A DNA stretch of 62,755 nt, the filler included, from Porpidia crustulata (lineage: Eukaryota): NCBI GenBank assembly GCA_964255105.1. It is 5 parts of 5 records of this genome, joined end to end, with 100 filler letters (N's around TTAATTAATTAA, not from the genome) between each part and the next. Parts side by side here need not be neighbours in the genome. Positions count along the whole stretch, not along the records: positions 12,580 to 25,052 come from CAXUWE010000531.1; 4 more parts are not named here. One strand, written 5' to 3'. Of this stretch, positions 12,480-50,294 are shown one piece after another. A program made the position numbers and the translations under genes. Within the stretch, counting starts at the first letter, position 1; each line of letters begins with the position of its first letter. The notes beneath the pieces were generated by a model. The model was not told where the DNA came from. It searched no databases and saw only the letters and a list, made by a program, of their open reading frames with translations.

Positions 12480-12579
12480 NNNNNNNNNNNNNNNNNNNNN
12501 NNNNNNNNNNNNNNNNNNNNNNNTTAATTAATTAANNNNNNNNNNNNNNNNNNNNNNNNNNNNNNNNNNNNNNNNNNNN
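12480..12579. other. Artificial contig linker (N44-TTAATTAATTAA-N44)
   Basis: The identical 100-bp spacer with six-frame stop codons occurs four times. Confidence 0.98.
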
Positions 12580-13423
12580 TGGTATTTGTGTCCCAGAAAA
12601 GGTTGGTTCTCTTTTGGCGGTGATCTTCTTCGGCTTTGCGGTCGATGGTGGCAAGTTGTGGTTGGGCTTCGGGGGACTTTATTTCCGTGTCGCAGACCTT
12701 GTTGCAGTCAACGGCGACGATATTGAGGCGGTCAAGGGCGATTTTATTCATGGTCAATGGCGCTTCGCTGGGACAAGTGCAGTCGAGTGTTTGGAGCTCG
12801 CAAGCAGCATGGTGCTTGTCCGACCATCCGCTGTGGCCTTGAGGGCTTCTGGGTTGAACTTTGGGTTGGAAATTTGGGTCTACCGCTACTGTTGTACGTT
12901 TCAGTGCGGCCAAGTTAGCTTGGTTGTGAAGTATTCTGTCCTTCAGTTCGGTCGATGAACCAATAACTGCGGTAACGGCCTCGATGGGAAATTTTCCAGA
13001 AGCGATAGAGACCTCTGCTACTTTCAGTGTGGTGCCTGCTACTTTCAATCTTATTGGCGCTTCGGAGAGTAATTTATTTGCTTTGCGAAGCTTGACAGCG
13101 TGTATAGCAGCCGGCTCAAGGAAAAGGTTTATCGACATAGTAGTAGATACTATGTTACCTGACATTAGATCTGCTACTCTTGAGCTACTTGAATCTGGTA
13201 CTGAAGCATTGTCCGTCATGTTTGTGTCAATGGCAGAATCTGCAGTCATCTCACATACCACTCTTGTGGTAATTAGATTTGTTAAGGTATTTTTGCCCCC
13301 AGAGGCTGATGTTTTGGAATTGCGCAATTGCTTTGCCAAGAAGAGAAGAATTCTTGATATGGTAGATAATGAAGAGGAAATCGTAGACCGAATCTTGACG
13401 GCCATGACTTCAGAAAGTGACAT
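12580..13423 (-). CDS. Hypothetical protein, truncated at the contig edge
   Basis: Open frame of ~280 codons running into the linker. No recognisable motif; start uncertain. Confidence 0.35.
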
Positions 13424-13914
13424 TGATATGAACGGAAAGGAAAGTGGTAAGGAGCGATGAAATTTATATCAGCGGAAAGCGGCTTCGCTACCAAAGAAAC
13501 ATGTGAAGTACCCTGGTCAATTTCTCATTGATGATATGAATGTATTGTTCTTACCTTCACTGGTTTCCAACATTACCTAAGTTCTTGAGCTTTTGCTGAA
13601 GTAGGTATTGAGCAATTCGGCAGAACGCTGTACACCTTTTACGAGTGAAAAGCAATTGCCTTGAAACCAGTGTTTCCAGCCGATTAAGAGAATCTTTCCT
13701 ATTTCCAAGCTTTGCCTCTTTTTATTAGATCTATTGAATTAACACCAAGTAAAGGCTTGACAGAGCTTTCTGTGGGGAGGCAGTGGACTCGTCAAATTGG
13801 GATATTGGGGATAGGTCCTATGATGACTAGAGATCCGTCTTGCGTGATGGATTTGAGATCTTGACGTTGCAATGCGGATCAATTGCGATGACTCGTCTTC
13901 GTTCCAGTTGAAGA

Positions 13915-15231
13915 TCAAGACTGAACATCATCGCCAGTCCCCTCTTCTTTGATTATGGTCTCCTCCTTTAGTACTTCACTTTTTACGCCCTCAGCAGTGA
14001 TCTCCTCTTCAGCCTTAACAGCCACTTCCACAACTTTGCCTTTCCTCTCCCCACCAACCTCTTCTCTCTTCACACGCTTGACGCTTTTAATTTTTCTTTC
14101 CACAACAGCACTGGGACATAATCCTTTGACACTTAATGTACAGTTTCCGCACTTCCTCCCTACCGGCAAACAAATCGTTTGCCCAAACCCCACTAAAAGG
14201 TGATTGATCTCATGCCATCTCTTTCTTGGCAACCAATTCTGTAATGTGATTCTCGTCTCCTCTGGCCCCTTCGTCTTATGCCATCCCCACAAATTGGTAA
14301 TCCGATGAACATGTACATCTACCCCGATACCCTCTGTCTTATCCCAGGCCGCGCTGAGGCACAAGTAGGCCATTTTGGGACCCACACCAGGAAGGCTCAT
14401 AAGACCGTCAATAGTGTCTGGGATATCTCCAGCATATTGATCACGAAGTATCAGAGCGCTAGCTTTGATATAGCGGGTCTTATTATTGTGAAAGCCGACC
14501 ACGTAGATCAATTCATTTAGCTTGACAGGATCGACGGCGAGAATATTTTCGAGGGTAAGTCCAGGTGCAGGGAGCTCGGTTTGGAGTTTGCGCATGGCGA
14601 TGGCGTTGGTCGTGTCTTTTGTTTGGGAACTGAGCATGAGCGCGATCAGAGTCTGGAAGCGCTTATCCCGTGGAGTCAGATGTTCTTCGGCAAGCGTTTC
14701 GCAGCCCATGGTATCCACAGGCGCCAAGTGCAGCTTGCGCATCTCTCTTACAGCGTCGTAGATCTCCTCCCAGTTCCCTGGTGGATGTATCTCCACTTCG
14801 CCGGCTTCGTTCGCTCTAATTCTCGCGGGCTGCCGCCGCCCTTTCTTATTTCTTGTGATACCGTCATCTTCAGTCTTGAGATCTGGCTTGCGAGGTGAGC
14901 TTCGAGCGGTTATGACCGTAGAGCTGCTCCTGACGGTGGTCGAAGGGGTTTCAAGTCCGCGCTTGCGCTTTCGGGAGGGTGAGATCTTCAAGGGGGTATC
15001 TTCGATATCAAATAGTTCTGGCGATGTTATGGACGAGAGGGAAGAGCCATTGTCGCTCGAGTCAAGTTGCTTTACGCCAATATCAGCTTTCTCCTGTAGT
15101 GGCAGATCTGACGCGTTGAATGCTTGAATTGATGCTTCGAACGATCTTGTATGTCGGCGAGGGGCATAATCCGCATGGGAGATGGATTTGACAACTTTTG
15201 CCGTCTCTCTCGCAATACGAGAAGTCTTCAT
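13915..15231 (-). CDS. NTH1: Endonuclease III-like DNA glycosylase/AP lyase
   Basis: LMLSSQTKD, HhH motif LPGVGPKMA, GVDVHVHRI, 4Fe-4S cysteines CLPVGRKCGNC...LCPS. Confidence 0.95.
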   Translation of the reverse strand: MKTSRIARETAKVVKSISHADYAPRRHTRSFEASIQAFNASDLPLQEKADIGVKQLDSSDNGSSLSSITSPELFDIEDTPLKISPSRKRKRGLETPSTTVRSSSTVITARSSPRKPDLKTEDDGITRNKKGRRQPARIRANEAGEVEIHPPGNWEEIYDAVREMRKLHLAPVDTMGCETLAEEHLTPRDKRFQTLIALMLSSQTKDTTNAIAMRKLQTELPAPGLTLENILAVDPVKLNELIYVVGFHNNKTRYIKASALILRDQYAGDIPDTIDGLMSLPGVGPKMAYLCLSAAWDKTEGIGVDVHVHRITNLWGWHKTKGPEETRITLQNWLPRKRWHEINHLLVGFGQTICLPVGRKCGNCTLSVKGLCPSAVVERKIKSVKRVKREEVGGERKGKVVEVAVKAEEEITAEGVKSEVLKEETIIKEEGTGDDVQS

Positions 15232-15390
15232 ATGGTTGATTGGACACAGGGAATATACTCAGGAGCTTTTGAATTTTGTCTCTAGATCCCTACGATTATT
15301 GCCCGAATCTCAGCCCTACGATTCTGCTGGCATCCAAACTGACCCCCCCCCCAAATCCTGTCGCAACACCCAACTGTTCCGCATTCCACC

Positions 15391-15961
15391 ATGCCTGCCG
15401 AAGATTATATGCCTGCCACCTCAGGCTCTCTAAAACTGAAAGGTGTGCAGAACTCGAAGATATCTAAGAAGAAGAAACGGTCCAAAGCTCCCCCGCAAGC
15501 CTCCAGCACTCGGGACTCCGCAGCGTCACCTTCGCCGCGAAGACAGCTTACCGCCGGCGAGCAGAAGCTCCATACCGGGTCTCAGTTGGAGAAGCGCGAA
15601 GAATTAGAGACGGCCAGCGATACCGAGAAGCAGGACCTACCACTCCACGGTAGAGGCAAGACGGAAGCGGAGATTAGGCACGAGGAGAAACGGCGGAAGC
15701 GGGTATGGTTCGTCTGGTTTGAGGGTTCGAGCTACATATATTGAGGTGGGAATAGCTGGACGAGCGCCTTAAGCGGGAAGGCACCAAGACGCACAAGGAA
15801 CGTGTGGAGGAGCTGAATCGATATTTGAGTAATTTGAGCGAGCATCACGACATGTACGTCCCCTAAATGAATGCCTCGCTACTTCGAAGAAGGGGGCAGC
15901 GGCTTGATGTAAGTTTACTGACGATAATGCGTTGCTTAGGCCTAGAATTGGACCTGGATAA
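15391..15961 (+). CDS. FAM32A/DUF1754 family protein
   Basis: Three exons: GSLKLKGV...KTEAEIRHEEKRRKR|LDERLKREGTKTHKERVEELNRYLSNLSEHHDM|PRIGPG*. Confidence 0.88.
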
Positions 15962-16330
15962 AATGGATGAATTAGTGTGGACTGGAGTTATGTTTTGGGT
16001 GGGTATGGAATTATGGCGTCTCCATTCATGTTTAGATGCATGAGAGTAGTAGAGGGAGATCGATTGTTGAACAAGAAAATGTAGTCTAAACCGCCATGAA
16101 ATGCCTCTATACCCACGCCTCGTATATTCGTACATAGAAACATGACCCATATTCTCGTTTCACGTTTCCAATACAAAAGCCCATCGTTCAACACCAGGGT
16201 ATATGTACGCTCACATATAGACGCTACAACGTTGTAAGCCACTCAATTGTGTGCGTAGAGCCAGATTCGGGAATTATAATGTGTCCGTCGGGTGTACCAG
16301 CACCAGTTCGTTTTCGTGTGAAGAGTTTAC

Positions 16331-18333
16331 TCAAAAAGCCACCCCTTCGGCCATCTCCAGCTGTTGACGTTCATACTCACCCCTCTCTACCGGAGTCACG
16401 TAAACATCTTGAAAGTTCTCCTCGTCCGTGTCTGTTTCGTCTCCAGAATAATTACTTGACCGGCCGCGTTGTTGTCGAAGGCCTGGCGACAGCCCCCGAA
16501 CTCCTGTGTTCAAAGAGCTTGGTGATGGGGGTTTCAAAAGCTGAATCTGCCGTTGCAACAGTGCAACTTGGTCTTCCAACTGGTGACGAGCGGACTGCTC
16601 ATGCCTTATCAATGTTATAAGAGTTGAGTAGTGCTCGAGAGTGAGACCACCAAGACTCACCCGCTGGGCCATGGGACCAGGTTTGAGAGTGGCGGCAACG
16701 CTAATGGGCCGGACAGTGGGTTCAGAGCCCCGCTGGTCATCTTGGGCCTTGAATACGCTTTGTCGAGTAACAGGTGTATTGTCAAGGCTTGACCCATAGA
16801 TAGTTGCGGGAGAGTATTCCATGTATGGAGCTGCAATGCGTTCAATCGAGTGTTGCTGAGCGGAAACAGCGGGGGAATGTTCATATTCTGAACCTTTGGC
16901 GGCAGGGAATTGGCCGGATTCGCGATCAATTGGCAAGGTTGAGTCGGCCTGAAGTTTCGAGATGGCATATTCAAAGTCCATGAGTTTAATCTCAAGCGTG
17001 ACCATCCTCTCCTCCAGACCTATGTGCTCTTGACTCTGTATATCGCCTATTGGAATATCGAAATTGAAATCGCTGTCCTCTGCGACTTTGTCACCATCCT
17101 TTCCAGCAACAGCGGGTACAGATTTCACGAAGTTTGCAGCAACTGGAAACCCTGTGTCGGCCGCCAGTGGCTTAATCTCATTACTAGGGAATCCAGTCAT
17201 ATCCAAGGCAGGGGACATCGCATCTGTACTTTCCCTCCAGTGTCTTATCTCGTCGCTTCTTCTTCTCCACCGATGCCATTGAATAGGTGACATTCGATGC
17301 TCTCTGTTGGCATCTTGAAAGGCACCGACGCTTCTAGATCGCCGTCGAGGGTTACTGCCACTGGTGACAGCAAACCCAATGTTCTCTCCGTCTACGGTTT
17401 GTTCATTGCCATCTTGGAGACCGAGACCTATCAGCGCACGATTGACGGTCTCGGCCTCTTGAGCGCTGAAAATAATGCTTGGTAAGGTTGCACGACGTGG
17501 TCGCGTAGGAGATTCCGGCGGCGTACGTGCGGGTCGCGGGGGCTTTGCCTTACTTGACACACGGCTGCTGGGAGGTATTTGTAGGGCAAATGGAGAATGC
17601 GAGCCAAGTGCGCTCGAGCGTAGCACTTCGTGAGTAGGCGCTGATACTGACCGCTGGGGGGTGGTAGGTAGTGGTGGTCTGGCTGTACCGGGCTTCTAGG
17701 AGTCAAATTAGCGTTGAGTGAGGCCTCTGGACTGGATTCGCCCGTCGGAAGTTCAGTTTGTAAAGTGGAATGGAAGATGTGAATTTCTCTCGAAAAAGTC
17801 TAATCATTCAGCTGCTAACTTACATGATTTTGGGCTACTGCCGGAGCAGGTAAGCTAATCCTATTCTTCGCGGATTTCCTGCCAAAGATACGGCGGAGAG
17901 TAGTCCGTAGTCCACTGCTCTTGCGTTTCGGGGTATCTGCAGGTTTTGAAAGATCGTCTGCCATTGAATCACGGTAGATCCCATTGCGTTGTGGTGTCAC
18001 TACACCGTCCGATCCCTTCACCTGTTCTTGGCTGTTGGGTATGGATTGCCTGTACGGAAGCCGGTGTGATGACTGCTCAGGTATCTTCTCGCTGGAAACT
18101 TGCCCTACAAAGCTGCCAGGACTAGCATCTCGAGACCAGCTCGTTTGAGGAAAATGCGTGCTCAATGGTTGCCCGTTGATAGTTGAGTCGTTGGAGGAGA
18201 AAGGGTCATCAGAGCTGTGATTGCACGCAAACGCTGGCTGCGGCTGCACAGCATTGATAGCGCCAATGTTTTTGGGCGCGATGGTCGGTACAAATATATT
18301 CTGATTAGTAGGACTTATCACATCGGCCATCAT
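16331..18333 (-). CDS. Conserved-looking fungal hypothetical protein (Ser/Pro/Arg-rich, C-terminal coiled coils)
   Basis: Two long ORFs joined by an intron at ~17823-17697 (GTAAGT...GCTAAT...TAG). Motifs RRATLPS, RRRSRS, LEERMVTLEIKLMDFEYAISKLQ, LIRHEQSARHQLEDQV. Confidence 0.75.
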
Positions 18334-20606
18334 ATCAGCACAAACCCCGGGGGACTCGATTAGAGACTTCGTCAAGCGACTTGAATTCTCCGACCACCAA
18401 GCTCATCGTGGAGCAATAGTTTCCAACAACACCGCCTTGCTCCGTAGGATCCCGTCCGGACCCAAGGACACTCGGAAAGATATTTGTCTGGCTGTTCAAA
18501 CGAAGGATGAATCTGGAAGGGGCAATTCGAGATGCATGCATGCATGCATGCAATAGAGAGGCGGAAGAGGGGTGTTTCAGACGATATATATTATTATCTT
18601 TGCCGGACGTATCATCATATGCAGACCTGCATTGCCAAGATAGGGGAGGGTGGTCAGACGAGAAGGCGTTCGTCTAGCCACTAAATTAATCGACCAGCGA
18701 GTGGAAATAGAGAGTGTGATCAAATGGAGAAGAAGACGTCAAGGCGCAATCGGTCCTATCGCGTCTGATATGGCGATCATCCGCCGTCGGTGGGTGGTTG
18801 ACTTGCATTGGGCATGGGCCGGAGGGGCTCAGTTAGAGATCGCCCTCATCCCTGTGCGGGTTTTCTTAATGAGTGCCCAATCAGCTCCCCCACATCCGCT
18901 TCTCACCAGTGCCACCCCACCAGCTCGTCGATCAAGCGCCAGTCCCAACGCTTACCGCAAAACCAAAGAGGCTGTCGAGGCTGTGCACATACCAAGTTCC
19001 AAGTCCTTCTCATGAATCCTTGACCTCAGGTAGAGAATGGAGCAGAGATGGGCATGAGATGGGCATTGCACCTTACAGAACGGTTCGAGGCTGGCGGCTT
19101 TCTAGTGACTCCGACTGGTCCATACTGGTCCATCATGAGTGACGATCCTGAAGTCTATCGACTACTACCTTACTATCGCCAAGAAGTGAGTTTTCCAAGT
19201 CGAGTGCAGGCGGTTCTGGCGGATGCTAGAGTATCTTTCTACAGTAGCATCCGCTGATCTTCCGCTAGAGGTAGTTGTTCTGTGAGTGCGCGAGAGCTTT
19301 GCTAGTTGATTGGCCAGCGATCACTTGGTGGTGCGATGATTAGAGATACTCCATGGAACTTGATTCCTCAATTAATTTGGTTGGAACGTGTATCTCGAAA
19401 TCAACCAGCATGTTATCATGATTTTTGACATGATCTATGACACATTTCTCTTTGTTAACAGATAGAGGAACATGAGGGGCTATTGGTCTCACCATGGACT
19501 AGGTTTCTCCACAAGGCCAGAGGGAAAGTCAATTTCAAAGTATGGGGATATTTAATCAACACGTCCTATTTTGTCTGTGTACTAAGCTGCTAGGAATATG
19601 GGCATCTTGCAGCCGACATCATCATGGAATGATAAAATGCTTGATGCGATCTATTGGAGCTACACCCCCGTCCTTCGTTACTATCATCTCCTTGTCTATA
19701 TATATCCGAATACAAATGCTCAAACGCCTTCTCCAGAATTCTGAACTTGAAAGAGAGGCGAGAAATACAACAAGAATGTCCTCCTAGCCTCACACGCATG
19801 TCCACGGTTTTGTTGGCTTCAAGGGCTCATCCTAACGTGTGAAAATCAGTCCTGAAGCGATTCTTCTCCGAGGAAGTTCTGCAGTTGACATCCAATTGAA
19901 ACACGGACGTTTCAATTACAAGATGTTTGTACCCCTTTAACGACAGACATAATTTCTGGCCCACAGCAGAATGTGGTTTTCCTTCCTCAGATAGGCGAGT
20001 AGGCGTTGACGGAGTCTTTTGTTCCAAAGAAAATTAATAAGGTATCGCCGAGGTAAAGCAGGAGCTCATCTCTGATGCGCGGTATCATGGCCATGCGGAG
20101 ATACTCGGAGGGCCTCTGTTTCACCAAGCCTATCGAAATCTTGTGTGCTGTTCAATAGGCTACGTCGGAGCAGTTCCCTCCGAATTTATACGTACATTAA
20201 CATGCGCAAAGACCATATGCGCCTGAGCACTCTCTACTTACTCACGGTAGATGAATAACATGCACCTGCATCATTTGGTAATCTCACTTCCTCACCAGTG
20301 GTCGTCTTGTAGTATTCGCCCATTCTGCATTGGATATGCACAGAAGTTGAGGGTGTATTACGGTAGGTGTAAATCGCAGTTTAATTATACACCGATAAAG
20401 CAGTAAAGCGACAGAATCCCTGTGCCAGATCCAGAGTCCCGCGTGTAGCACGTTTCGCTGCCACATTGATGTCCACGTACCCACCTTCCTTGCTCCTACT
20501 CACACACTGCAACTCTCCTCCCAAAAGACGTACGGTATCTTCGCGCAAATGCAAAATTCGTCTGTACTAGCCGCGAATCGCAAAACACACGCATCTGCCA
20601 GTCTTT

Positions 20607-20825
20607 CTAGACCCCTGAGATCACTTGAACCTCTTCCGCTTGCATGCCTTTCTGACCTGCCGTCGGAATGAACGAGACTTGCTGCCCTTCTTTCAGGCTT
20701 TTGAAGCCGTCGGATTGGATCGCTTTGAAGTGGACGAAAAGGTCATCTCCGGATTGGGGGGTGATGAAGCCGAAACCCTTCTCGTCGTTGAACCATTTCA
20801 CAGTTCCGGTCTGACGGTTAGACAT
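20607..20825 (-). CDS. Bacterial-type cold-shock protein (CspA family; Pseudomonas CapB-like)
   Basis: 72 aa single CSD with RNP1 KGFGFI and RNP2 [57 protein letters not shown]. Confidence 0.95.
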
Positions 20826-20831
20826 TTGAGG

Positions 20832-21049
20832 CTATAAAGATTTGGTCAACATCTACCTCTGCAGACAAGGCATCTTGCGCAGAAGTTCTGACATACCGAT
20901 TGATATTAATGGCAGTTGGACAGTTTCAATATCCCTAGCAGGCCGACCTAGATTCCAAGAAAGTCCGTGCTCGAATATTTGGGTTGGAAATTTTCTGAGG
21001 CAGTTCCAGCACTAGAAGATGTCAAACGGAGGACATGTGGCCATTTATA
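20832..21049 (-). promoter_or_regulatory. Putative 5'-UTR spliceosomal intron (20896-20832) and TATA box (21049-21044) of the CSP gene
   Basis: Minus strand: GTATGT...GTTGAC...TTTATAG ends 6 nt before the ATG (CCTCAA-ATG). TATAAA lies ~150 nt further upstream. Confidence 0.65.
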
Positions 21050-23119
21050 GAGGAACTGATGAAAGTGGATCTTATTCGGCATAGCGTGCTTGGTGCACGA
21101 AGGTACGGATACGGTAAGGGCTGCAGCGAAGATGAATACTGCGTTTCGCATATGGCCCAGACCTGTGAAGGGAAGTAAGCCAGCTGCAAAGAAGTCTATG
21201 CAGCGTCGCGTGTATGAGTCTCTTGCGCAGGTCAAACGGCTTTCATGTAAGCCAGCCGCAATGAATTTGTTGCACGGTCCTTTAAGTGCCATTGCTACAG
21301 AGTCTAATGACCTTTCTTCTACCGCCATTACCTCAACATTTGTGGAGGCAAAGTCAAACCAGTGGCTCAATCAGTAGCTCTTGCTGTATGCAGCATCATA
21401 GTCGACAACGCTATGGCACGTCAACCTCACAATATAATTAGTCCCACACATGGCGCAAGGGCCCGGATAACCGATTTGGGACTTCAATCCTGCAGAGTTG
21501 AAGCAGCCCGCCTATTGCTACCTTGCAGTCCTTCTCGTCGAGACGTTTTGACACGCTTCGTTCCAAGTCTTGCTGACGAACGACGATTCTTTAGCTTTGC
21601 TATCAAACGCTGCCGATGTATCCTGCCGAAGCTATCAGTCCTTTCGCATGCTATTTTCAGTCGTTCCTTCTCTTCATCCTAAACCGCTCTCCTAATTCTC
21701 TACTTCAAAGAACAAACAGCATCCATGGTGCAACATACTTCGCTAGATCTCTTATACGAATTATTGACCAATCGTAAATTTTTTGCACTCCGTCTAGCCC
21801 AGATTATCCAAATTTCCCCAATCAATTCGGGTCGCTTCGGGCTTCGATAAAAGGCATAACCAGTCATTGATACACGCTTCTAGCCTCAACACGGACACAT
21901 TTTACACGAGAATGTGAGAGAGGTAGCATGTGGTCGAGTCTCTGATACATATGCTTTATGATTAAGCATTACAGGCCATTTGCCCAATTGCCACTTGTCA
22001 ACTGATATGGTGAGTCATGCTGATATAGAGTGTGCCGAGGGCGCCATAGGCGTCGACATTGAGTTCCTTTGCTTTGTACCATGTAAGCTGTTGAGGATAC
22101 TCGCTGAGACCTCGCATCATTTCAGCGATTCCGATGTAGAGAAGCTTTCTCCGCCACTCGTCAAGGGAGATTCAACTCGACACCACCCACCAACCCTATG
22201 AATCCAGTCTTGGCTGCTTCTACACTCAGTACTCGCATTCGACATTGGACTCCGGCTGAGCCGTCCCGGCGAAGGGTGTGTCCGCTTGAACCATTACCCT
22301 GGGGACTAGTCTGTAATAACTTCGTTAACAGTTTGGGCATTGGCGCGTATCTTTCCGATAGACTCTGCTAGAATCCTACGTGGGGGCATGGCCTGCGCCA
22401 CTTGCGCCTTGACCTGGACTTTGGAGTTTGGAGTTGCTTTGTTTAGAGAGTAACCTGTTATAGCATAGCACGGAAGGCTATCTTAACCGCTGTTCCGCTG
22501 AATAAAGTCATTACCATACATGTACTCATGTTGTCGATCATCGAACGCCCTCTTCCCAACAACATCCACTTCGACTTACTTCGTCGACATACGTTGCGTA
22601 CCACCGACAACGCGCTCCTTACTCACTCGTTATCTTATTTACTTTCGAGACTAGATGACTTGTTAATGGCCATAGATCATGGTTCGCTTTTCTATGTGCG
22701 GGCCTTGTCAATAGTCTCCAACATCCTGCGATCAGTAATTTCTACCTTTGACAGTACTTTGTATCTCATACGGACTAATTTAGAGGTCGCAATAAGCTGA
22801 TCTCGCTCTTTGTTGCCATGTTTGCTCGCCCTGGAGAGTGCTAGTGATTCCAAGCGGTGTATTAGGATTAATATACGCCTATTGCTGATCCAAGCATAAT
22901 GCAGCGTACTACTCATGACGAGGCTCACGGAACACATGTCCATACCAGACTTGATTGATTGGTGATCATTGGCCGTTAGATTATGATGTGGGGTTTAAGA
23001 TATTCAATTACCCCACCTATCAGGCATTGGCTTGATGTAACCACGATATATATATCATATCAAACAAACAAATGTAAATATCGTCTTATCTCAAATTATC
23101 TAGAAGAATTTAGATAGCA

Positions 23120-23993
23120 ATGGCAGACCACCGAGTCGAGGATCTTCTAGCTCGTAATAGGTACCACGCACTTCTCATCTAACATACGCCATCACTAAAA
23201 ATTAACTACAAGAGAGTATTCAAAGACATATAAAGTCCCCCGGTCAATTGCTGAAATTCGAGCCCAACCACCTCCTCCACACCCTGGGATTGCCATCCGT
23301 AATCCCTCCATTCCTGAAAACCATTCGCTGTAATTAACGAAAACTTGCAGTCTGTTGCGTTGACGGACGCCTGTGGCCCGATGACTTCTTCCAACTATCA
23401 AAGGGCGGTTAGTCGTCTTCCCAAGATAACTCTGCCCTACTGTAGCTTTGCTGAGCTTCGTGAAATCCATAGAGGCTCCTGTCATCCGTACAGCCGGCGG
23501 CCGAGCCATGGACGCCATGCGTTCTCTAATGTCGTTGGATGTTATCATTGGCCTTGGAACTGTCATGGTCATTCATCACACTGGTAATTCTTCTCTCTGG
23601 ATTTTGCTATGTCAAGCCATCGCAAGCGCACCATCGCAGGCGCACAGCAAGAGAAAAACTGACCGCCCCCAGACTGTGGCTTAACCCACGTGACGGACGA
23701 GGGAATCCGCGAGAGCTTGAGAAACACAGCGCCTGATCACGCGCACGAAATAGATGGCATGGAGTTTGGGGAAATCAAAGAGTTTGTTCCACAGCTTCAC
23801 TTCACTTATCGTGGCCTTATCAGGAGTTGCCCGAGCAGATTCACTAACGCCTGCTCTCCGCAGTTTGACCGAGACTGTCAGGGAGGACGTGGGGTTCATC
23901 AAGGCATCTCCGTACTTCAAGAACGACCTCAAAATTCTGGGGTACATTTTCGATTTGACGAAAGGAACTCTATCGGAGGTGACGCCGAAATGA
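23120..23993 (+). CDS. Beta-class carbonic anhydrase (short, clade D / Cab-like)
   Basis: Six exons splice into one frame: MADHRVEDLLARNREYSK...LCCVDGRL...VIRTAGGRA...VIHHTDCGL...VREDVGFIKASPY...GYIFDLTKGTLSEV*. Zn ligands CxD and HxxC. Confidence 0.88.
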
Positions 23994-25052
23994 TATATTT
24001 GGAGGATAGCTACCGATCTACGTGGAAACAAGAGTGAGATGCCTATGCAAAGGCATTCACAAATCCGACTTGCCTACATTTGCTACTCTTGAAATCAGTT
24101 GGGAACACCCAAGACGCTCGAATACATGTCTATCATACGCATTCGCTACTACTACTCGTTATGCGCCCTCTTGCAACCCTTTTCTTTCAAACTACCCACA
24201 CCAGGCCCGCAAGTTTCTGACTCCATCTTCAGCCACCCAAAACTGTCTTCATAAGAAGGGACTTGTGTATCCCATGAGAAAGCCAAGCTATCGCAGTGTC
24301 CTGATTGTCATGTATCTGCAAGTTCTACCTAGGACATTAAGCTATCATACCAAGACTAAGTTCCCTTGTGGAAAGAGCGATATGATACGCCAAATCCCAA
24401 AGGTGCCATCATAACAGATCTGCTGCATTTGATCTATTTCTCTCGAACTCCAGCAGCAACTTGGCCTCTGCATATGCCAGATGAGTCCAGTCCTCGTAAA
24501 ATTTGGTGTTTTGCATTAATATCGTTCAATGAAGCTTTCTTTCGGGGATGTGGAATCCTTAGATCCACTCGAATTGCTCATCTTCTCACTTCATCACCAC
24601 GTCGGTATACGTACCATCAGTTTCTAAGGAGAAAACCGAAGTATCACTTTATTACCTCTACCTACTACAGAGTCCTATCCTATTCATTCCTTTTCCACGG
24701 TATGGGTACTTCGCTTATTAGTTTTCATTCTCTTCTCATCTTCTAAATTGATCAACCACAAATACCGCAATCTAAATCCTCGCCCCGAGGGATCACGGCT
24801 ACAGCCAGAATAGATTACAACATCTACATCATCGGAGATCCGAACGCCGTTCATACGTCCGACCCACCTCCAGAGACGTCCAGCCCGGTTTTCTCCTAAG
24901 CAGAATGGTGCGTAAGGCGCTACCTTGATGGCAGCCGCTCCGTCGACATCTCTATGCACAATCGGCGAGCATGAAACGTGGCTTCCAACCACCAATTTCT
25001 CACATCAATATATCATTCATAGCACCCCCACCACTCCCAAATTCCACGTCCC

Positions 25053-25152
25053 NNNNNNNNNNNNNNNNNNNNNNNNNNNNNNNNNNNNNNNNNNNNTTAA
25101 TTAATTAANNNNNNNNNNNNNNNNNNNNNNNNNNNNNNNNNNNNNNNNNNNN
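25053..25152. other. Artificial contig linker
   Basis: N44-TTAATTAATTAA-N44. Confidence 0.98.
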
Positions 25153-37624: not shown

Positions 37625-37724
37625 NNNNNNNNNNNNNNNNNNNNNNNNNNNNNNNNNNNNNNNNNNNNTTAATTAATTAANNNNNNNNNNNNNNNNNNNN
37701 NNNNNNNNNNNNNNNNNNNNNNNN
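37625..37724. other. Artificial contig linker
   Basis: N44-TTAATTAATTAA-N44. Confidence 0.98.
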
Positions 37725-50194: not shown

Positions 50195-50294
50195 NNNNNN
50201 NNNNNNNNNNNNNNNNNNNNNNNNNNNNNNNNNNNNNNTTAATTAATTAANNNNNNNNNNNNNNNNNNNNNNNNNNNNNNNNNNNNNNNNNNNN
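50195..50294. other. Artificial contig linker
   Basis: N44-TTAATTAATTAA-N44. Confidence 0.98.

Follow-up and report, generated by a model that had tools for sequence, protein, structure and literature searches.

A Pseudomonas capB-type cold-shock gene in conserved fungal synteny in the lichen fungus Porpidia crustulata

Cold-shock proteins of the bacterial type are, as such, already known from fungi. Metarhizium possesses CRP1, a bacterial-type cold-shock protein that protects cells from freezing, as reported in a review; CspA (IPR012156) genes have been recorded in Epibryaceae (Chaetothyriales) in a 2025 paper that also cites an expansion of CspA in Antarctic Dothideomycetes (PMC12750107); and a tabulation of genes with cold-shock domains (CSD) gives two in the lichen fungus Cladonia grayi, one in Aspergillus nidulans and none in 12 other ascomycetes (PMC6652019). 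The gene described here, found in a genome assembly of the lichen fungus Porpidia crustulata, resembles each of these in part. CRP1 is likewise a bacterial-type single-domain cold-shock protein encoded by an ascomycete genome, but Metarhizium belongs to a different fungal class, and the two proteins are compared here by description, not by sequence. The genes of Epibryaceae and Antarctic Dothideomycetes are likewise CspA-type genes of patchy occurrence in cold-dwelling ascomycetes and are read as an adaptation to cold, but in the accessible text of the source (PMC12750107) they appear as domain counts, without donor, synteny or gene structure, and this comparison, too, is by description. Cladonia grayi is also a Lecanoromycete with CSD genes, in a family counted as expanded, but the accessible part of that source lists the family as stress-related transcription factors with reference to eukaryotic CSD proteins and mentions no bacterial origin (PMC6652019). 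In the openly accessible full-text literature that was searched, no account of a csp gene of Pseudomonas origin in lichen fungi came up. The present locus is a new and unusually well-resolved case.

The window, meaning the whole stretch of DNA that was analyzed (62,755 bases), consists of five pieces of about 12.47 kb each, joined by runs of N around the spacer TTAATTAATTAA; the contig that carries the gene occupies positions 12580-25052 (12,473 bases between spacers) and comes from a metagenome assembly. All five contigs carry eukaryotic housekeeping domains (DNA polymerase epsilon subunit B, importin, bromodomain/BAH, M16 peptidase). The best named relatives of the endonuclease III (Nth) encoded on the contig of interest are all from lichen-forming Lecanoromycetes: Letharia columbiana (89%), Dirinaria and Lecanora helva (86%), and Cladonia borealis (85%). 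Between Nth and the cold-shock gene sit the FAM32A-like gene and the two long ORFs of the downstream neighbor, hereafter ORF454 and ORF195, and on the other side of the cold-shock gene lies a divergent gene whose exons are separated by short GT...AG introns. Pfam searches with single exons of this upstream neighbor (23120-23993) gave no match; it contains C-x-D-x-R and HHT...DCG, which we presume to be motifs of beta-class carbonic anhydrases, and may be such an enzyme. An earlier note, made from the sequence alone, had placed the cold-shock gene in the middle of a contig beside intron-containing fungal genes, and the identities of Nth, the FAM32A-like gene and the multi-exon upstream neighbor agree with that placement. 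The coordinates of all features are given in Table 1.

Table 1. Features of the window and their identity to orthologous loci (L081, L101 and L108) in metagenome contigs
Feature	Coordinates	Strand	Details
CDS of 72-aa cold-shock protein	20607-20825	(-)	ATG start; stop TAG at 20609-20607
Serine codon TCA at site of bacterial TAA stop	20616-20618	(-)	followed by GGG GTC TAG
Coding region			164/196 identical to L101
Putative 65-nt 5'-UTR intron	20832-20896	(-)	GTATGT from 20896; TTGAC 20849-20845; TAG ending 20832
Around putative donor			9/12 identical to L101
Interior of putative intron			14/40 identical to L101
Branch point to acceptor of putative intron			13/19 identical to L101
Putative first exon, stretch after TATA block			59/123 identical to L101
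TATA-containing conserved block	21030-21055	(-)	TATAAA 21049-21044; 22/26 identical to L101 and L108
Promoter region upstream of TATA block, with conserved blocks	21056-21275	(-)	132/216 identical to L101, conserved bases occurring in runs
First 105 nt after stop			81/105 identical to L101
Conserved 3' flank, likely 3'-UTR	20261-20606	(-)	blastn block 20848-20261, 72.7% identical to L101
Endonuclease III (Nth)	13915-15258	(-)	Pfam HhH-GPD 6.5e-20; longest ORF of the contig
FAM32A-like gene, first exon	15343-15744	(+)	Pfam FAM32A 1.9e-11
Downstream neighbor, two long ORFs (454 and 195 aa)	16331-18402	(-)	fungal gene without known domain
Upstream neighbor, multi-exon fungal gene	23120-23993	(+)	divergent; exon-wise tblastx to L101 and L081 (54-68% aa)
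N spacers	12480-12579, 25053-25152, 37625-37724, 50195-50294

The cold-shock ORF encodes a protein that matches the Pfam CSD profile (PF00313) with an E value of 6.6e-29 and 100 bits, against a cut-off of 27, the match covering residues 6-68 and profile positions 2-65 of 66. Its closest solved structures are those of bacterial Csp proteins (E 8e-24 to 1e-18), compared to only about 1e-8 for the eukaryotic Y-box and Lin28 domains, and unlike Y-box and Lin28 proteins it is a single domain of about 70 residues without auxiliary domains. With the leader either spliced or intact, an in-frame stop directly precedes the ATG, so that the protein has no N-terminal extension; the lone 72-residue cold-shock domain noticed at the outset is thus what both the ORF and the Pfam match describe. 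The sequences KGFGFI (residues 16-21) and LFVHF (residues 29-33), which we take to be the nucleic-acid-binding motifs RNP1 and RNP2, are both intact when aligned to 3cam, 2lxj and 2l15. By analogy with the family, the protein is likely to be a five-stranded beta-barrel of the cytosol, which would bind single-stranded RNA by way of RNP1 and RNP2. Such binding would keep RNA unfolded and counter the secondary structure that cold stabilizes, and by doing so may help translation to continue in thalli that are cold, frozen or drying.

A protein search returned thousands of matches of the CspA family, of which the top ones were of the Pseudomonas type (up to 96%). Among 80 bacterial loci fetched with their flanks as a comparison set, 18 Pseudomonas species share one identical protein of 69 residues, named CapB by the database sources, and the protein of the window is identical to it at 67 of 69 residues, which accords with the approximately two mismatches given in the earlier note; the substitutions A54P and R56A produce the sequence IPTAG. 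A degenerate DNA pattern for the window-specific peptide found 0 matches in metagenome contigs, so these two substitutions seem private to the lineage of the window among those data. Pseudomonas CapB/CspA thus has the same length as the protein of the window up to the old stop, and shares both RNA-binding motifs, but differs from it by A54P, R56A and a three-residue C-terminal extension in the fungal protein. At the nucleotide level, the 18 Pseudomonas capB genes are identical to each other at 199-207 of 207 positions, and the gene of the window is identical to them at 171-175 of 207. The ORF of the window differs from the consensus of the 18 genes in 31 codons, 29 of them synonymous, and 15 of its bases are absent from all 40 close bacterial genes. 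Its top bacterial DNA match is 84.6%, and this DNA is present in no sampled bacterium.

Within Pseudomonas, capB was observed to be almost invariant in DNA over 18 species (L001-L020, positions 1320-1770), silent sites included, and this, together with conservation upstream of the gene, suggests strong constraint on the mRNA itself. Genes and proteins of the CapB type were also observed under other names. A contig titled Streptomyces sp. (L023:155-361) contains a CapB-type gene with a GC3 of 0.89 and 24 private bases that sits among Pseudomonas in the tree on a long branch, and several proteins named as Streptomyces are among the close protein matches; the gene in L023 looks like a csp gene of the Pseudomonas type that moved into actinomycetes and was recoded there. 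The EukProt entry P0012 of Spumella vulgaris (116 residues) is identical to Pseudomonas CapB in its first 66 residues and continues with unrelated sequence; a bacterial contaminant or a wrongly called frame in that data set is the probable cause.

The end of the frame reads ATC-TAA in the 18 Pseudomonas genes and ATC-TCA-GGG-GTC-TAG in the window, as expected from the suggestion that a change of TAA to TCA at the bacterial stop had added the residues SGV. The orthologous genes in L101 and L108 have TCG aligned to the TCA of the window and the same aligned TAG, but their proteins end in EEV-S-P-I, with a gap of 9 nt relative to the window; another variant of the fungal-type protein ends in S-R-V-L, near the S-G-V of the window. 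Judged from this alignment, and subject to the placement of the 9-nt indel, the serine codon that took the place of the old stop was probably already present in the ancestor of the fungal clade. The most economical account has the stop lost, and the new TAG in use, before the fungal lineages diverged, after which one lineage would have dropped three codons, but the alignment is ambiguous at this point and would also accommodate another placement of the gap.

The similarity of the DNA to Pseudomonas spans the distance from ATG to stop, and blastn similarity to the 80 bacterial loci is confined to 20829-20615 in the best 60 alignments. In Pseudomonas, approximately 180 nt upstream of capB are 84-96% conserved between L012, taken as the reference locus, and 17 other species with the identical protein, and both the upstream region and the terminator are still detectable in more distant Pseudomonas; neither has a counterpart in the flanks of the window, where the best E values are 1.2 upstream and 0.5 downstream. 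In the reference locus, AAGGAG lies ahead of the ATG, the frame closes with ATC-TAA, and a hairpin-U terminator is clearly present. The ATG of the window has no AGGAG in front of it, and consensus scans of 20200-21300 found 0 hairpin-U terminators (1.0 in shuffled sequences) and 0 sigma-70-like promoters (1.3 in shuffled sequences), in keeping with the absence of a Shine-Dalgarno sequence and terminator that had been claimed. Of seven HSPs that extend outside 20590-20840 in a tblastx comparison of 18940-23120 with the 80 bacterial loci, five merely overrun the ends of the ORF, and the other two (22 and 30 residues, 43-50%), considered as bacterial remnants, were taken as chance extensions linked to the main match. 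The gene of the window thus differs from Pseudomonas capB in having a fungal chromosomal context without the bacterial promoter, 5'-UTR, Shine-Dalgarno sequence or terminator; it descends from the capB group of Pseudomonas, yet its regulation is no longer that of bacterial capB. Because the mRNA leader in which bacterial temperature control resides is gone, that control was not carried over, and any regulation of the gene must be fungal. The only Rfam match, to the bacterial cspA thermoregulator, was recorded at 20653-20969 on the minus strand with 27.3 bits, below the gathering score of 78 bits; it shares bases with both the ORF and the putative intron and is attributed to the coding part.

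A scan of metagenome contigs with the Nth protein yielded 56 loci, in six of which (L081, L101, L103, L106, L108 and L135) a cold-shock ORF is located, as it is in the window, some 5.4 kb upstream of Nth and on its strand, with the gene order between Nth and the cold-shock gene kept in all six. Protein identity to the window in these six orthologous loci is 56-58% for FAM32A, 72-73% for ORF454 and 64-66% for ORF195; with L105 included, where these two ORFs occur in the same order, it is 72-73% for ORF454 and 64-67% for ORF195. The DNA of the window is collinear with that of L081, L101 and L108 on both sides of the gene, at 23994-23270, 20848-20261 and 18939-14025, the first of these blocks being only a short remnant in L108. 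One orthologous locus belongs to a contig of 495 kb, whose nearer end is approximately 100 kb away. The two protein types of the orthologues are on record from 35 and 9 contigs, of up to 664 kb and 495 kb, respectively, the exact 72-residue protein of the window is on record from one ENA contig, and five further variants of the fungal-type protein are present in the protein collection. In the protein collection searched, no variant of the fungal clade is listed under a fungal name or has an entry in UniRef or nr, so the gene has apparently been missed by current fungal annotations. The Nth proteins of loci that carry the gene are nearer to the Nth of the window than to that of any named species. 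Six other loci (L082, L083, L097, L118, L124 and L126) keep the order Nth-FAM32A-ORF454-ORF195 and contain no cold-shock ORF in the 4-6 kb upstream; the upstream neighbor gene is also missing from these more distant Lecanoromycete loci, and because synteny ends there too, they offer no clean empty site by which a gain could be distinguished from a loss or relocation. A separate observation in L108 (8330-10000) is approximately 1.5 kb of extra DNA between the FAM32A-like gene and Nth by comparison with L101 and close relatives, which is possibly an insertion.

The flanks that replace those of the bacterial gene contain signals of fungal type. The earlier note had described an intron with GTATGT, TTGAC and TAG ending 6 nt before the ATG, and a TATAAA upstream of it; these signals are indeed read there, and they are conserved between fungal lineages, the orthologues having GTAGGC, CTGAC and AAG where the window has GTATGT, TTGAC and TAG. 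The introns of the upstream neighbor are of the same size and have the same kind of signals. An intron-like pattern (GTATGT, 25-55 nt, YTRAC, 5-25 nt, YAG) occurs six times in the window compared to 1.16 expected, and 0 of 100 shuffled sequences reached six; thus, a chance match that ends 6 nt before the ATG is unlikely, the pattern having been chosen after the sequence was seen. Judged from the sequence, the element at 20832-20896 is probably a 5'-UTR intron, and transcription of the gene by RNA polymerase II and splicing of its leader are predicted. Beyond the stop, a second conserved block was noticed at 20310-20399 on the minus strand (67/88 identical to L101), 200-300 nt past the stop and following a stretch of poor conservation (49/99); this block might serve as an element of the 3'-UTR or in polyadenylation.

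Since the contig comes from a metagenome, and since the same sequencing run contains short contigs of low depth with other bacterial csp genes that match 20757-20795, it has to be considered that a cold-shock gene of the microbiome was wrongly joined into a fungal contig. An assembly break at the gene was looked for as the outcome that would speak for such a chimera, and none was found: a Logan contig of 8,075 bases, made by an independent assembler, spans 16976-25050 with 0 differences and reproduces the join, at an even depth of 10.8 that equals that of its neighbor. Among the three public runs listed, with no RNA run listed for the locus, one, a DNA run, contains it, and because that run is probably the source sample of the window, the Logan contig is a check of the assembler and not of the reads; the other two runs of that study yielded nothing beyond short fragments, from Nth and from different csp genes. 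The gene is linked to host genes in the contig of the window, in the Logan contig and in six more contigs of up to 495 kb, where the same insertion has alignable fungal flanks; there is no bacterial flank of any length, and the sampled bacteria contain nothing closer than the best match given above. A chimera is extremely improbable. The ascomycete CSD counts for Cladonia grayi and Aspergillus nidulans (PMC6652019, Additional file 9) would be compatible with an ancient eukaryotic or fungal CSD that was inherited vertically and is Pseudomonas-like by constraint, and the direction of transfer might also have been from fungus to bacterium. These possibilities are addressed by the gene tree that had been proposed as a means of telling nesting within Pseudomonas from a broad, vertically inherited fungal clade. 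The tree, built by maximum likelihood from 52 DNA rows and 198 columns, unites the three fungal sequences in one clade (support 100/98, stem 0.17) that is nested in a 36-row Pseudomonas clade (99/93) excluding Stutzerimonas and Thiopseudomonas, which join it in the enclosing clades, and no broad fungal clade lies outside the bacteria. The nearest row is P. abietaniphila (95/84), but the branch that supports this placement is very short (0.011). Common to the three fungal sequences are 13 derived third-position bases, each seldom or never seen in 49 bacterial genes, which points to a single acquisition. In addition to this nesting, eukaryotic CSDs are far more distant than bacterial ones (about 1e-8 versus 1e-24), and more distant Lecanoromycetes showed no such gene next to the conserved block, so that vertical descent of a fungal CSD, or transfer in the reverse direction, has a probability close to negligible. 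The transfer from bacterium to fungus that the earlier note had claimed is borne out by collinear fungal DNA in seven contigs together with the nesting inside Pseudomonas.

If the transfer was genuine and old, the present copy might nonetheless be a decaying, unexpressed relic, since expression of the gene in the window is predicted from its sequence and its silent changes resemble drift more than adaptation to fungal codon use: relative to the codon use of four neighboring ORFs, which is a small and weakly biased reference, 10 synonymous changes are toward and 19 are away, so that no clear shift toward local codon use appears. No RIP-like bias was seen among the changes (T>C 6, C>T 5, A>G 5, T>G 5 and others). 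The rates of substitution argue against decay. Between the window and Pseudomonas locus L012, by the method of Nei and Gojobori, 29.0 of 43.2 synonymous sites differ, for a dS of about 1.7, which is near saturation, and a dN of 0.019. Between the window and L101 or L108, a path that lies wholly within fungi, Sd is 23-24 and Nd is 8-9, for a dS of 1.0-1.15 and a dN of 0.053-0.060, and the dN/dS between fungal lineages is 0.052, which is strongly purifying. Random change in this ORF, as expected of a neutral relic, would be protein-altering in about 76% of cases and would introduce a stop in 4%, but the frame is open in all seven fungal copies, and blocks of the promoter and 3' flank are also conserved between lineages. 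A relic is very improbable. The near-saturated dS and the low dN/dS within fungi imply that the transfer was not recent and that the gene has long been kept by selection; of the alternatives first offered, "recent or strongly conserved," only the latter stands. A functional transferred gene might still have an unspliced 5'-UTR, in which the GT...AG element would be no intron and the conserved blocks would be elements of the promoter or UTR. The orthologous acceptor is AAG instead of the usual YAG and the orthologous donor is GTAGGC, and the position of the element outside the coding frame permits no test by reading frame; but conservation peaks at the donor and from branch point to acceptor and falls in between (Table 1), the length and signals match those of the neighboring gene's introns, and the pattern is rare by chance. 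An unspliced leader is accordingly rather unlikely, though it is to be reckoned with more seriously than any of the preceding alternatives.

Beside the observed location, synteny, nesting inside Pseudomonas and purifying selection within fungi stands the preferred reading, which is very probably correct: a gene of the capB/cspA type passed from Pseudomonas of the P. fluorescens lineage to the ancestor of a lichen-forming group of Lecanoromycetes, was inherited vertically ever since, and acquired fungal signals. By this account, the bacterial promoter, long 5'-UTR, Shine-Dalgarno sequence and terminator would have been replaced by fungal DNA, leaving only the reading frame donor-like, and the replacing DNA would now provide a conserved TATA box, a probable 5'-UTR intron of 65 nt and a conserved 3' flank. 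The bacterial stop would have become a serine codon, with the frame ending three codons later.

Bacterium-to-fungus transfers in which the donor genus is resolved, synteny is conserved and selection can be measured are uncommon. Because the donor gene is nearly invariant in Pseudomonas, even at silent sites, the fungal copies display the changes that followed release from bacterial constraint: silent sites were randomized, the leader and terminator were replaced and the stop was moved, and the protein was hardly altered. A broader interpretation, possible but put forward tentatively, is that Pseudomonas from the bacterial community of the lichen itself donated its major RNA chaperone of cold acclimation to the fungal partner, and that the gene, recast in eukaryotic form by gaining a promoter, a 5'-UTR intron and a different stop, now aids tolerance of freezing and drying across an entire group of lichens. 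If this is true, then the lichen gene, along with those of Metarhizium, Epibryaceae and Antarctic black fungi, would make the gain of bacterial csp genes a recurrent and convergent event in stress-tolerant ascomycetes. For the biology of lichens, the gene is a concrete candidate for a contributor to tolerance of cold and desiccation that is open to tests of expression and complementation.
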